Shown here piece after piece: positions 27,675-32,126 of a stretch of DNA of 64,000 nucleotides. The DNA comes from an uncultured Verrucomicrobiae bacterium. GTDB lineage: Bacteria > Verrucomicrobiota > Verrucomicrobiia > Chthoniobacterales > UBA10450. Below the pieces are notes generated by a model. The model was not told where the DNA came from, did not search any database, and saw nothing but the letters and a program-made list of their open reading frames with translations. Where the stretch lies: the NCBI GenBank assembly GCA_963834385.1, contig CAWIBO010000002.1:704001-768000 (forward strand). The letters run 5' to 3'. Position 1 is the first letter of the stretch, and each line of letters begins with the position of its first letter. The translations under genes were made by a program, and so were the position numbers.

Positions 27675-28129
27675 GCGGCCGCGGTCGAGCCCAGCTCCTC
27701 GGTGCATTCCGGGCAGCGTTTCGCCTTGATCGGAATCGACTTGGTGCAGGCCGGACAATCCTTCACCACCGCCGGTGCGTTCGGCTTCGGTTTCTTCATC
27801 CGGTTAATGCCGCGTACCAGGAGAAAAATGGCGAAGGCCACGATGATGAAATTGATCACGAGGGTGAGGAAGTTCCCGTAGTTCCAGGTGATGGCCCCGA
27901 GCTTTTCCGCCTCTGCCGGGGTGGAAAACGAACCGCCCCCGGGGGCGTCCTTCAAGACAATGAACATGTTGGAGAAATCGAGTCCGCCCGTGAGCAGGCC
28001 AATCACCGGCGTGATGAGATCTTTGACGAGCGAGGAAACAATGCCGCCGAAGGCGGCGCCAATGATGACACCAACCGCCAGATCAAGGGCGTTGCCCTTG
28101 ATGGCGAATTCCTTGAATTCTTTCCACAT
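27671..28129 (-). CDS. mscL: Large-conductance mechanosensitive channel with C-terminal zinc ribbon
   Basis: [34 protein letters not shown]; tail CPAC...CPEC. Confidence 0.95.
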
Positions 28130-28143
28130 AACAAATCAGTGAC

Positions 28144-31100
28144 TCAATCCGTCACGATATTCACAAGCTTTTTCGGGACGACCACGACCTTGCGGGCGGT
28201 TTTGCCCTTGCCCTCAACCCATTCGCGCACCTTGGGGTTGGCCAGCGCGGCCTGCCGGTAATCTTCCTCCCCGACGGCCAGCGGCAGCCGGATGCGGTCA
28301 CGCAGCTTGCCATTCACCTGCAGGATGACCTCGACCTCATCCTCGACCAGGCAGGCGGGATCAAACTCCGGCCAGCGCTGATCGGTGATGGCGCCCGCAT
28401 CGCCGAAGCGTTCGGCCAGTCGTTCCCAAAGGTCGGAGGTGAGATGCGGAGCGAAGGGATTCAGAAGAACCAGGAGCGTGCGCAGGGAGCCAACCGGCCG
28501 CTTCTCGGCGCCCGTAAAGGCGTTTACGAACTGCATCATCTGCGCAATGGCGGTGTTAAAGGAAAGGGTCTCGATATCCTCCGTCACCTTTTTGATCGTG
28601 GCGTGCACCACCCGGCGCTGCGCCGGCTCCGGTGAACCTTCGTCCAAAGCGTCGGAAAGCACCCAGTCACCGGCCTGGTTCTCCTCCATGAAAAGCCGCC
28701 AGACCCGGGCAAGGAAGCGCGAGACGCCTTCCACCCCCTTCATGCTCCAGGGCTTCATCTGTTCGAGCGGCCCCATGAACATCTCGTAGCAGCGAAAGGC
28801 ATCGGCGCCGTGTTCGCGCACGACATCATCGGGATCGACCACGTTGCCCCAGCGCTTCGACATCTTGCGATTGTCCTCGCCCAGGATCATGCCCTGGTTG
28901 ACCAGCCGCTGGAACGGTTCCGCCTTCGAGAGATGGCCGAGATCGTAGAGCACCTTGTGCCAGAACCGGGCATAGAGCAGGTGCAAAACCGCGTGCTCCG
29001 TCCCGCCAATGTAAAGATCCACTCCGGCCGCCCCCTCGCCCCCCATCCAGTAGCGTTCGGCTTCGACGCCCACGAATCGGTCCTCGTTTCGCGGATCGCA
29101 AAAGCGCAGGTAATACCAGCACGATCCCGCCCATTGCGGCATGGTGTTGGTTTCCCGGGTCGCCTTCTCGGAATGGCGGATCCAGTCACGGGCTCGCGCC
29201 AGCGGCGGTTCGCCCGAGCCGGTGGGCTTGAAATCGTCTAGGGGCGGCGGCGAGAGCGGCAGATCGTCCGCCGGAAGGGCGCGGTGCCTCCCCTCTTCCC
29301 AGATGATCGGGAACGGTTCGCCCCAGTAACGCTGCCGGGAAAAAAGCCAGTCGCGCAGCTTGTAACGGACGTCGCGCCGCCCCCGGCCCTGCTCTTCCAG
29401 CCACCCGATGATCTTTTGTTGCGCCTCCGCCGTCGGCAGCCCGTCGATCAGCGGCGAATTGATCGCGACCCCGTCGCCGCTAAATACGGAGCCCGGGTTT
29501 TCAACGGAGCCCGGGTTTTCAACCCGGTCTTCACGGCTTGAAAAGCCGTGCTCCTAAAGTCGCGCTCCCAAACCGGTACGTCCTTGCCGGACAATCCGGC
29601 TTTCTCCGGGTTCATCGCGATGTACCTGCTTGAGAAAATCGTAATGTTCCTGCGACCGCACCAGCCGATCAAAATATTCCTCCTGCCAAAGCGATCCGCT
29701 TTGACCGATCCTCTTATTGATCTCCAGGGCCGAATGCCGCTTCCAGCTGTGAACCACGGCCGGAAGCGTCTCGTTTTCATGCAGGCGAACCAGCACATGC
29801 ACGTGATTGGGCATCACGCAGAACGCATGCAATTCGTAACGCTGGCCCTCAAAAAACCGTAACGCCTCGACAACGATCTGCGCACATTCCGGGCGGGCCA
29901 GCACGCAGCTGCCTGCGCCCGCGTCCAGCCACTCATCCAGCCGCGCGCCAAAACGCTCGTAGAACTCGTTCTCCTGTTCGGCCGTCCATGGCTCCGGGTG
30001 GCTTGCCAGCCAGCGTTCACGATCCTCCCGCAGCTCCGCGAGCTTCGGTTGCGGCAGGCTGTCGGCCAGACGCCAGGTGAGGAAGTAGAGGCTTTGGGCC
30101 TGCTGCCAATGCGGAAGGTTTCGTCGATGGATCTCGATCTCTTCGCGTGGATCGAGGAACCCCCTTTCGGAGCCCGGGTTTTCAACCCGGTCCTCGTCTT
30201 CACGGCTTGAAAAGCCGTGCTCCTTAGAAACCCCGTGCTCCGCAACGACCCGACGAATCGGAAGATCGAATTGACACGCGAATTCGAAATCCCGCTCGTC
30301 GTGCGCGGGCACGGCCATAATGGCCCCGGTGCCGTAACCCATCAAAACGTAATCCGCGATCCAGATCGGAATCTTCTCCTGGTTCACCGGGTTGATCGCG
30401 CAGGCCCCGAGGAAAACCCCGCTCTTTTCCTTCGCCAGATCGGTCCGCTCGAGATCGGATTTCGCGGCCACCTCAGCCCGATACCGGGCGACATCGCCCC
30501 GGCATTCCGCGGAGGTCAGTTGTTCCACCAGGGGATGTTCCGGCGCGAGCACCAGATACGTGGCCCCGTAGATCGTGTCGGGACGGGTGGTGAAAACCTC
30601 GATGAACTGATCAGGGTCCAGGGTGCGGGCTTCAGACCTTTCCCCTGAACCCTGGACACTGAACCCGGAAAACCTGATGACTGCGCCTTCACTCCGGCCA
30701 ATCCAGTTCTGCTGCAGCAACTTGATCCCGGCCGGCCAATCGAGCGGCTCCAGCTCCTCCGCGAGGCGATCCCCATAGGCGGTGATCCGCAGCATCCATT
30801 GCCGCATCGGCCGGCGCACCACCGGAAATCCACCCACCTCGCTTTTGCCGTCGATCACCTCCTCGTTGGCGAGGACGGTCCCGAGCTCCGGGCACCAGTT
30901 CACCGGCACATCCGCGACATAGGCGAGGCGCACCCCGTCCGGATCATCCCCGTCGTAAGTGTCGATTGGCTCGGCCTTGCGCGTGGCCGGGTTGAACCAG
31001 GAATGATAAAGCTGGAGAAAAATCCATTGCGTCCAACGATAAAAATCCGGCTCCGCCGTGCTGACCTCGCGGCTCCAGTCGTAGGAGAATCCCAGCCGCT

Positions 31101-31467
31101 TCAACTGGCCCTTGAACTTCGCAATGTTGGCCCGGGTGGTGATGGCCGGATGCTGCCCGGTCTTGATGGCATACTGCTCGGCCGGCAGGCCAAAGGCGTC
31201 CCAGCCCATCGGATGCAGGACGTTGAAACCGCGCATGCGTTTGTAGCGCGCCACGATGTCGGTCGCGGTGTAGCCTTCCGGATGCCCGACGTGAAGACCG
31301 GCGCCACTCGGATAAGGAAACATGTCGAGCACGTAATACTTCGGCCGGGTCGCGTCGAAACCCGGCTCCCCGGGATTGAGGGCGCGGAACGTTCCCTCCG
31401 CCTCCCAGCGCGCCTGCCAGCGCGCATCGATTTCGTCGAAAGGATAAGGTTTGCGGCGTTCGCTCAT
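28144..31467 (-). CDS. leuS: Leucine--tRNA ligase carrying an internal RAYT/REP insert (apparent in-frame TAG at 29554-29556 between two compensating indels)
   Basis: [50 protein letters not shown]; after the insert [34 protein letters not shown]. Confidence 0.95.
29488..29554. repeat. REP cluster downstream of RAYT: partial REP plus inverted REP pair
   Basis: GGAGCCCGGGTTTTCAAC + GGAGCCCGGGTTTTCAACCCGG + CACGGCTTGAAAAGCCGTGCTCC. Confidence 0.9.
30169..30241. repeat. REP cluster upstream of RAYT: inverted REP pair plus partial REP
   Basis: GGAGCCCGGGTTTTCAACCCGG (30169-30190), CACGGCTTGAAAAGCCGTGCTCC (30201-30223), AAACCCCGTGCTCC (30228-30241). Confidence 0.9.
30611..30669. repeat. Heptamer-built imperfect hairpin inside the leuS coding sequence
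   Basis: TCAGGGT-CCAGGGT-GCGGGCT-TCAG ... CTGAACC-CTGGACA-CTGAACC-CGGA; arms match 19/25. Confidence 0.7.
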
Positions 31468-31541
31468 GCGCGAACAATCAGGAACGCAGGATGGCTCGGA
31501 AGGAAAATGAAATTTTTCGTTCTTTTCCGCGGGGTCAGCCG

Positions 31542-32126
31542 ATGACGCTGACCCTGGCCACGGGCAATCCGCACAAGACCCGCGAGTTGAGGGCGCTCCT
31601 GGGGGACGCGGTGGAGTTACGCGATCTTTCGGCTGTGCCGGGTTTTTCCATGCCCGAGGAGACCGGGGCGACCCTGGAGGAAAACGCGATTCTCAAGGCC
31701 CTGGCCCTGGCCCGAGACCAGCCCGGGCTTGTTCTGGCCGACGACTCCGGCCTGGAAGTTGACGCGTTGGGAGGGGCGCCCGGCGTTTTCTCCGCACGCT
31801 ACGCCGGTGCCACCGCCACCGACGCGGACAATGTCGCCCGGTTGCTCGCCGCCCTGGAGGGAGAAGAAGATCGTTCCGCCCGTTTTCGGTGCGTTCTTGC
31901 AGTAGCCGAAGAAGGGCACCTTCTCGTGACGCTGGACGGCCTCCTCGAAGGGGCCATCGCCACCGGGCGGCGCGGTGAGAGCGGCTTCGGCTACGATCCG
32001 GTCTTTGTTCCGGCCGGGGAAACCCGGTCCCTGGCGGAGTTCTCCGCCACGGAGAAAAACCGGATCAGCCACCGGGCAAAGGCCGCGGAAAAACTGCGCG
32101 CCTGGCTGGAGAGAAGCCGCCGGTAA
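31542..32126 (+). CDS. rdgB: Non-canonical purine NTP pyrophosphatase (RdgB/HAM1)
   Basis: [51 protein letters not shown]. Confidence 0.96.

Follow-up and report, generated by a model that had tools for sequence, protein, structure and literature searches.

What is the domain of a transposase doing inside the only leuS gene detected in a bacterial genome, and can the gene still be read across it? The question is raised by a stretch of 64,000 nucleotides from an uncultured Verrucomicrobiae bacterium of the order Chthoniobacterales (UBA10450; assembly GCA_963834385.1, contig CAWIBO010000002.1, positions 704,001 to 768,000), here called the window, with positions counted from its first letter. 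The gene for leucyl-tRNA synthetase (LeuRS) in this window carries an insert of ~754 bases (29488-30241, minus strand), which consists of a doublet of repetitive extragenic palindromic sequences (REP), the domain of a REP-associated tyrosine transposase (RAYT, an HUH/Y1 transposase) and another REP doublet, and lies in a loop of the LeuRS editing domain. We think it probable that the insert is a selfish REP-RAYT-REP cassette without promoter, start or stop of its own, placed in frame in the loop of the connective peptide 1 (CP1) of the sole detected leuS and translated as an internal domain with no splicing, and that the defects of this particular copy are errors of assembly. The features of the locus are the following.

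31467..28144, minus strand: leuS, ending in the stop TGA.
30242..31467, minus strand: leuS 5' part, LeuRS residues 1 to ~409, with the first half of the catalytic core and most of the CP1 editing domain (Pfam tRNA-synt_1, and tRNA-synt_1_2 at 253-415).
30169..30241, minus strand: upstream flank, with REP doublet arms 30169-30189 and 30203-30223 and a third, partial REP copy at 30227-30241; -23.6 kcal/mol on the coding strand, z -5.19; residues 413-433, predicted local distance difference test (pLDDT) <50.
29626..30159, minus strand: N-terminal 178 residues of the RAYT domain in the LeuRS frame, with the motifs LPHW, LADSLP, MPNHVH ... DFLKQ.
29625..29626, strand not assigned: CC dinucleotide, site of the extra base, one base more than in any homologue; frame shift between DFLKQ and YIAMNP.
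29557..29624, minus strand: C-terminal helix of the RAYT with the catalytic tyrosine, in a frame other than the LeuRS frame.
29554..29556, minus strand: in-frame TAG, the only internal stop of the LeuRS frame; one short-read contig has an extra base inside it.
29488..29554, minus strand: downstream flank, with REP doublet arms 29506-29526 and 29534-29554 and an 18-nt tandem duplicate of half a REP at 29488-29505; -22.7 kcal/mol, z -5.19; residues 622-655, pLDDT <50.
28144..29487, minus strand: leuS 3' part, with the remaining editing domain, the second half of the catalytic core, the anticodon-binding and C-terminal domains and the stop TGA.

From its start codon the LeuRS frame passes through a REP-encoded linker into the Y1/HUH domain and meets no stop, and the N- and C-terminal halves of LeuRS are in the same frame. 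Both points had been made in an earlier, sequence-only reading of this DNA and are borne out by translation. The same is true of its remark that the RAYT has no start codon of its own: there is no in-frame ATG, GTG or TTG between codons 386 and 522, so that the domain lacks a start ahead of its N-terminal motifs. That reading went astray over the frame itself, which it took to be preserved. In the assembled sequence the LeuRS frame past DFLKQ gives unrelated residues and then TAG 29554-29556, and the called open reading frame (ORF) is therefore 29554..31467, 637 aa. The HUH motif (MPNHVH) is located in the LeuRS frame; the tyrosine motif YIAMNP, which had been placed there as well by combining motifs from two frames, is encoded in the window but one base out of frame. 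Beyond the TAG, no canonical in-frame start occurs before 29142, and initiation there would cost the protein its RDWxxSRQRYWG core.

The synthetase is otherwise intact. Its two halves are 68-78% identical to the LeuRS of relatives and contain no stop besides the TAG, and the Pfam scan of the read-through product found the LeuRS catalytic, CP1 editing and anticodon-binding domains together with Y1_Tnp. In alignment with Thermus thermophilus LeuRS (1H3N) the 5' part extends to residue 366 and the 3' part starts from residue 377, with the insertion site between them. The site falls within the region covered by the isolated editing-domain structure 4K47, so that the insert occupies a loop of the CP1 editing domain, where relatives carry a linker that varies between 9 and 15 residues. 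The genome (2.9 Mb, 5 contigs, 89.6% complete) gave one leuS match. Candidates for a second leuS were rejected, the remaining matches being IleRS, ValRS or MetRS-like.

By sequence, fold and HUH motif the inserted domain belongs to the RAYTs. Pfam Y1_Tnp (PF01797) matches it with 38.8 bits (cut-off 23, E 1.2e-9; 43 bits in the genome search), and a RAYT profile search matches ISDra2 TnpA (4e-7) and the Escherichia coli TnpA-REP 4ER8 (7.5e-6). With a model of the 178 in-frame RAYT residues of the window (pLDDT 85.6), the top Foldseek match is again 4ER8, a complex of E. coli TnpA-REP with a REP hairpin (E 3.5e-6), and 2XM3, 2F4F, 2EC2 and 2VJV come next; transposases of ISDra2, IS200 and IS608 are among them, and 26 matches were obtained at E<=0.001. 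The tyrosine of YIxxNP aligns with Tyr132 of ISDra2 TnpA (2XM3), which we take to be the catalytic tyrosine of that enzyme; the entry of its Y132F mutant is found among the structural matches. The RAYT carries a two-helix insertion of ~45 residues after the first strand. The full-length read-through product, modelled from 104 aligned sequences (mean pLDDT 81.8, predicted template modelling score 0.71), contains the RAYT as a folded unit with means of 10-residue blocks of ~68-91, mostly 73-91. Residues 413-433 and 622-655, the REP-encoded linkers, have pLDDT <50, and the latter segment includes the out-of-frame stretch.

The architecture is not confined to the window. Residues 400-700 of the read-through product, used as a query against a protein collection, matched 458 proteins at E<=1e-20 among 4919 candidates. 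The best 120 of these 458 comprise 111 LeuRS-RAYT proteins (median 1072 aa), eight HsdR-RAYT fusions and the 637-aa ORF of the window itself. Wherever both anchors are present (103/103 LeuRS-RAYT proteins), the RAYT lies between the AHDxRD and RDWxxSRQR motifs. Among the 111, the HUH motif was found in 110 and Y..NP in 109, with the tyrosine kept in the two that miss the latter; by the strict pattern, the tyrosine motif that is out of frame in the window is in frame in 109/111. In the alignment of 104 sequences, i.e. the read-through product of the window as the first row and 103 LeuRS-RAYT proteins, neither HUH histidine varies, and Tyr, Asn and Pro of YIxxNP are each retained by >=90% of the sequences. 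Three cultured Verrucomicrobiota have LeuRS-RAYT proteins, namely Haloferula sargassicola, Luteolibacter pohnpeiensis and Roseibacillus persicicus, in the last case on a 5.5-Mb contig, and some of these proteins bear the JGI name 'leucyl-tRNA synthetase/REP element-mobilizing transposase RayT'.

The nearest homologue with an intact frame, P0123 from a soil metagenome, deserves special mention. Its host parts are 73% and 69% identical to the LeuRS of the window and thus no closer than relatives that lack the insert (67-78%), and its RAYT is 60% identical. Just ahead of the DLYVGGTEHA motif, P0123 (1289 aa) contains another inserted domain, of ~180 residues (precomputed Pfam PF18812), so that one synthetase bears two unrelated inserts.

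Are the TAG and the frame shift real? Homologues read FDRLVRDEKHFANCVKYIRRNP, with exactly 10 residues between the (D/S)(E/Q)xH position and YI, and the window gives this very spacing if one base of CC 29625/29626 is removed. The two frame shifts in the window leuS cancel exactly. In P0123 the RAYT core, YIAANP...SGVPVW, the REP-encoded EAGFS...VKNP and LeuRS follow one another in a single frame and in the same order of segments as in the window. Short-read data come as four DNA contig sets (runs) from one soil-metagenome study that share few words with the stretch (0.06-0.11); no run of RNA was among those listed. They include one contig (X4 record 28, 29491-29625; depth 2) with a 'C' added behind 29555, inside the TAG; the added base puts the frame of the tyrosine motif into the LeuRS frame. 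Additionally, five of ~24 genes of the own genome show frame changes relative to the ORFs of relatives, with six shifts in ~35 kb or roughly one per 6 kb, and alaS alone has two uncompensated frameshifts. Given the indel-noisy assembly, the extra base in the X4 contig and the single frame of the P0123 segments, we read the TAG and the frame shift, on comparative sequence evidence, as most probably two compensating one-base errors of assembly in a real gene of one open frame. The TAG is explained by this frame evidence, and nothing else suggested its recoding as a sense codon. The same indel noise probably lowers the completeness estimate of the five-contig genome.

Several points weigh against this view. 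The correction at 29555 comes from a single contig of depth 2, possibly from the assembly's own sample, and this contig departs from the window elsewhere, in three other letters and in a 6-base overlap of its two pieces. Its alignment ends at 29625, as an indel there would make it do, and no read directly displays the base at 29625/29626. The genes valS, carB, purL and mqnA of the own genome (~11 kb) are without frameshift. Two errors 70 nt apart would be unlikely, unless errors cluster at hairpins, and, taken literally, the assembled TAG and the out-of-frame tyrosine break both the LeuRS and the RAYT. Regarding clustering, frame breaks in RAYT-bearing valS and carB genes of other few-contig assemblies of the family (L060, L065, L066 and L070) fall in REP linkers or at the RAYT end in four of eight cases; hairpins may be error-prone in long-read assembly, or such sites may be genuinely unstable.

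If the defects were genuine, this leuS copy and its RAYT would be a decaying pseudogene or a split gene, the cell relying on another LeuRS encoded in the 10% that the assembly misses; alternatively, the assembly would represent a variant that is non-viable or in the minority. The sequence as it stands, the incompleteness of the genome and the four large genes free of frameshift speak for such a state. We nevertheless consider it unlikely. A single leuS was found, and a second intact copy, which the sequence-only reading had named as fatal to its proposal, did not turn up in the genome search. Each of 40 relatives has leuS as one open frame of typical length (851-1086 aa when complete) and yielded no other match of leuS size at E<=1e-50. 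Both halves of the window LeuRS are conserved as described, the shifts compensate exactly, the base absent at the TAG is present in an independent contig, and the assembly is demonstrably noisy in indels. Moreover, a C-terminal fragment would have no canonical start before 29142.

The insertion itself is real, since short-read contigs bridge both of its junctions. On the C-terminal side the leuS/REP junction is bridged by the contig X4 record 27 (29358-29508, two differences) and by X1 record 7, and on the N-terminal side the RAYT/REP/leuS junction by X2 record 14 (30075-30326, two differences). Another joint in X4, from 29364 to 30290 (skipping 925; one contig, shorter side of 20 letters), was considered as a possible empty-site allele and rejected, being probably the leuS of a relative. 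Mis-assembly, by which a RAYT locus from elsewhere would have been wrongly joined into leuS, had also been raised in the sequence-only reading and has found no support; end repeats could mislead an assembler, but both junctions are spanned by short-read contigs with 2-5 differences, the site and architecture are identical in 103/103 other LeuRS proteins, and the own genome has no second copy of the leuS RAYT. We hold such an artefact to be extremely improbable.

The REP doublets that had been noticed at both ends of the insert are confirmed by computation of arms, repeats and folding. Each doublet has two 21-nt arms, 86% complementary and 7 or 13 nt apart, and 29 nt are identical between the two doublets, which are repeated in direct orientation. 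As single strands both ends form strong hairpins (-18.8 to -23.6 kcal/mol, z -4.2 to -5.5; 0/200 shuffles as good). In the window (30221-30228 and 29552-29559) and in the filled leuS of another genome (L084, G735), two unrelated LeuRS-resident cassettes, the REP units start with (A)AGGAG directly ahead of the hairpin (TAAGGAGCACGG, TCAAGGAGCGTGGG). Other REPs have a GTAG foot. The (A)AGGAG may be a GGAG 'foot' replacing it; the motif also resembles a ribosome-binding site. Elsewhere in the genome and beyond the window, at C2:856340-856620 (window coordinate ~152,400), two tandem units of ~147 nt with the leuS-type REP doublet (GGAGGCCGGGTTT..AACCCGG) lie apparently outside any long open frame.

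LeuRS is only one of many hosts. The RAYT profile matches 270/355 genomes of the family at E<=1e-15; this tally and one of the 150 rows listed (G216) include unpublished genomes. Among the best 150 RAYT matches, 114 are in stop-free frames of 436-1430 aa and 36, by our own count, in frames of <400 aa. Pfam assigned 42 sampled frames to ValRS (15), CarB (17, in the oligomerisation domain), PurL (5, at two different sites) and MqnA (2), with three devoid of another domain. A search among longer proteins gave 2042 matches at E<=1e-10 among 2847 candidates and added AlaRS, MetH, IspG, DUF1156, dGTPase, Eco57I-type methylases, TsaC, XseA, Dtd, DinG and PglZ to the hosts. By source name, the family falls within Chthoniobacterales (Verrucomicrobiota), and further carriers come from Planctomycetota and, in small number, from Proteobacteria. 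The check for Y1_Tnp in aminoacyl-tRNA synthetases and other housekeeping proteins that the sequence-only reading had proposed thus yielded ValRS, AlaRS, CarB, PurL and MqnA in addition to the 111 LeuRS.

Some proteins have two RAYT domains at two sites: P0023 (AlaRS, Planctomycetota), P0053, P0082 and P0090 (DUF1156), P0054 (MetH), and P0070 and P0081 (IspG). In IspG and DUF1156 the first and the second domains form separate clades. The own genome contains one copy of each RAYT type. Its alaS (contig C3:123600-127000, outside the window; L002, L036) has a second, different RAYT in frame, with LFEREAARLSG before and VISGEFAFRLYD after it, between inverted repeats of 60 nt with 90% complementarity; another REP of this type lies in frame upstream. 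An origin of the leuS RAYT as a recent copy from elsewhere in its genome was rejected: the genome has no close paralogue of it, identity to the alaS copy amounting to 48% over 84 residues.

A tree of 102 RAYT domains shows the window RAYT as sister to that of P0123 (SH-aLRT 97) within a clade of 16 LeuRS-resident RAYTs (97). An earlier tree had placed it on a long branch beside free-standing copies, a position superseded after LeuRS-resident RAYTs were added. RAYTs group by host gene, with 28 label changes against a shuffled mean of 72 (0/200 shuffles match). MqnA RAYTs are nested in CarB RAYTs (96-98), and PurL and dGTPase RAYTs in ValRS RAYTs; such nesting of host labels points to jumps between host genes. 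LeuRS-resident RAYTs occupy at least three separate places in the tree, and one of their clades is sister to the free-standing RAYTs of the family. The window RAYT belongs to a clade residing at the same LeuRS site across Verrucomicrobiota, within a larger group in ValRS, CarB, PurL, MqnA, AlaRS, MetH, IspG, XseA, restriction-modification enzymes and others.

Comparison with empty-site alleles, likewise proposed earlier, gave two results. The insert is absent from leuS of all 40 relatives examined, 24 of the family and 16 of the order (37/37 without the unpublished genomes G002, G007 and G014). Within one genus, however, leuS is filled in G735 and empty in G032, and the two LeuRS are 96% identical (932/971). 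Between shared anchors the filled allele measures 756 nt and the empty one 99 nt, a difference of 657 nt or 219 codons. G735 was the one further match spanning a LeuRS-RAYT junction in the phylum-wide search, in which distant genes were split into pieces, so that it gives no phylum-wide frequency. Loci of unpublished genomes (L012, L015 and L022) served as rows in the frame-change, linker and identity comparisons, and no conclusion depends on them alone.

These data also count in part against the cassette as we picture it. With 40/40 relatives lacking the insert, its retention is not guaranteed. A 39-nt linker of G032 is missing from G735, i.e. the sequence was replaced rather than cleanly inserted, and recombination fits as well as transposition. 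Moreover, the cognate REP is scarce in the own genome, where seven matches with <=3 mismatches were found at four other places (chance expectation, by our own arithmetic, ~0.05).

Nei-Gojobori estimates from nine ValRS-RAYT gene pairs show the RAYT domains to be under purifying selection, with omega of 0.06-0.10 where synonymous divergence (dS) is unsaturated; host parts gave 0.03-0.15. For the REP linkers omega ranged from 0.10 to 1.26 and exceeded 0.2 in 14/17 estimable values. In the five closest pairs, linker dS was 0.26-1.27 (8/10 values <=0.78) compared with 0.87-2.21 in host parts. Such omega together with low dS suggests that the linkers are weakly constrained as protein and constrained as DNA, as expected for functional hairpins.

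The strong purifying selection on the RAYT domain would also fit a domesticated RAYT, inherited vertically and serving the host as an accessory domain, for example in the processing of REPs or single-stranded DNA (ssDNA), with expression guaranteed. Catalytic motifs kept in ~110/111 LeuRS fusions and the grouping of RAYTs by host gene point the same way. In its title and in passages of its text, PMC6006769 treats free-standing RAYTs as potential HuH endonucleases, not shown transposases, and Bertels et al. 2017 (10.1101/119735), whose title calls RAYTs domesticated, describes them in its abstract as typically single-copy, suggesting that self-copying has ceased. This explanation is rather unlikely in our opinion. 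The hosts are functionally unrelated (aminoacyl-tRNA synthetases, CarB, PurL, MqnA, restriction-modification enzymes, XseA, Dtd), the distribution is patchy, with 0/40 relatives carrying the insert in leuS and both filled and empty alleles in one genus, hosts have been switched, hairpin ends are conserved at the nucleotide level, and RAYTs of at least three lineages are found in this one LeuRS loop. The sequence-only reading had gone too far in taking retention as guaranteed: the insert is lacking in 40/40 relatives, filled and empty alleles coexist in one genus, and many hosts are non-essential (restriction-modification enzymes, XseA, Dtd).

Removal of the insert before the mature enzyme is made, at the RNA level as an intron or IStron or at the protein level in the manner of an intein, is suggested by the position in an essential gene, which resembles the niche of these elements. 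However, none of the five Pfam families found at E<=0.01 in the read-through product is an intein, Hint, LAGLIDADG or homing-endonuclease family, in agreement with the lack of intein motifs stated earlier. Rfam intron and ribozyme models over 28000-31600 gave at E<=1 four chance-level hairpin matches only, all far below gathering scores. Insert junctions vary among homologues and are situated in a variable loop rather than a conserved motif, and 111 LeuRS as well as hundreds of further hosts keep the cassette open and in frame, which an intron would not need. Splicing is, in our estimate, very improbable.

How, then, would the cassette persist? Borrowing the signals of its host gene, it would be transcribed and translated with leuS, giving a LeuRS of ~1,100 residues in which the RAYT forms a separately folded internal domain between two disordered REP-encoded linkers, as an appendage on the editing domain. 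Like the IS200/IS605 and TnpA-REP enzymes, the RAYT would take single-stranded DNA as its substrate, namely its own hairpins and related REPs. Only in-frame, sense and stop-free insertions in tolerated loops of expressed genes would both express the transposase and spare the host, and the architecture seen would follow from the survival of these alone. The cassette would be kept by selection acting on the transposase and on the hairpin DNA; it would occasionally be lost, replaced or moved to a new host gene, and its spread to the same LeuRS loop may have involved targeted transposition or recombination of flanking leuS sequence. Translation of the window copy as a LeuRS fusion, its transposase activity and its mobility are what we infer.

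The proposal of the sequence-only reading, a non-splicing in-frame domain parasite, is thus strengthened by comparison (111 LeuRS, other hosts, and neither intein, intron nor second leuS); it requires amendment in that the window copy is not open as assembled and expression of the fusion is deduced. For the wider claim, that an HUH transposon lineage without promoter, start or stop of its own lives only as an in-frame internal domain, has functional hairpin ends, jumps from CarB to MqnA and from ValRS to PurL and has re-occupied the LeuRS loop in at least three lineages, we see a slightly better than even chance.

RAYT or TnpA-REP genes are reportedly flanked by REPs or REPINs. The leuS cassette shares much with such a REPtron, as exemplified by E. 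coli YafM (PDB 4ER8), its best solved match: an HUH and tyrosine Y1 domain with NHVH, WQ and, one base out of frame as assembled, YIxxNP, REP doublet hairpins on both sides, one copy per genome of each type, and similar REPs elsewhere in the genome. In contrast to a REPtron, it is neither free-standing nor intergenic and has no start or stop of its own; the frame enters from LeuRS and, in homologues, exits into LeuRS. Its flanking doublets are direct instead of inverted, the ~45-residue two-helix insertion is an addition, and the genomic REP population is very small.

Rickettsia palindromic elements (RPEs) are said to lie in frame in protein genes. Intragenic REPs and RPEs resemble the leuS flanks in being palindromes that are translated into additional peptide where loops of housekeeping proteins, among them tRNA synthetases, tolerate it; the leuS linkers are predicted to be disordered. 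The intragenic REPs and RPEs measure 20-150 bp and encode no enzyme, whereas the leuS insert carries a whole transposase between the repeats. Inteins with homing endonucleases are likewise selfish in-frame elements of essential genes, use the expression signals of the host, recur at the same site and are patchy, with filled and empty alleles. The leuS insert, unlike them, has no Hint or splicing domain, and so would presumably be retained in the finished protein; its place is a variable loop, not a catalytic motif, and its enzyme is an ssDNA transposase, not a dsDNA homing endonuclease. With IS200/IS605 elements and IStrons the cassette has in common the Y1 transposase fold and the similar subterminal hairpins at its two ends, which share a strand as those of IS608 and ISDra2 do. 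However, IS200/IS605 elements have expression signals of their own and disrupt genes, while the leuS cassette is without tnpB; IStrons escape through RNA splicing, and the leuS insert has no ribozyme match.

Of the literature, Quentin et al. 2018 (PMC6006769) gives the RAYT classes; this large survey set over-long proteins of the kind aside, taking them for fusions or annotation errors. Di Nocera et al. 2013 (PMC3733652) describes intragenic in-frame REPs and RPEs, and frame-keeping REPs inside tnpA-REP genes have already been described as well. A full-text literature search found no paper on RAYTs embedded in host reading frames, the supplements of PMC6006769 and PMC3733652, which might list some, being outside this search. 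The leuS locus is an example, with LeuRS as host, of an apparently unpublished REP-RAYT variant.

RAYTs have usually been treated as single-copy, free-standing and possibly domesticated genes, and in-frame REPs as passive hitch-hikers. If the proposed reading is true, inteins and self-splicing introns would be joined by a third means of persisting within genes, a RAYT cassette whose sole expression is as part of an essential enzyme. In Verrucomicrobiota, Planctomycetota and some Proteobacteria, 'over-long' housekeeping proteins would then prove by the thousands to be chimeras of an enzyme and an active transposase, and many over-long synthetases and biosynthetic enzymes in public annotation would be accounted for. 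For annotation there is a warning, as long-read assemblies tend to break RAYT-bearing genes at hairpin linkers. The cassettes would offer natural, tolerated insertion sites in LeuRS, ValRS, CarB and PurL, and the role of RAYTs would become directly testable in cultured carriers.

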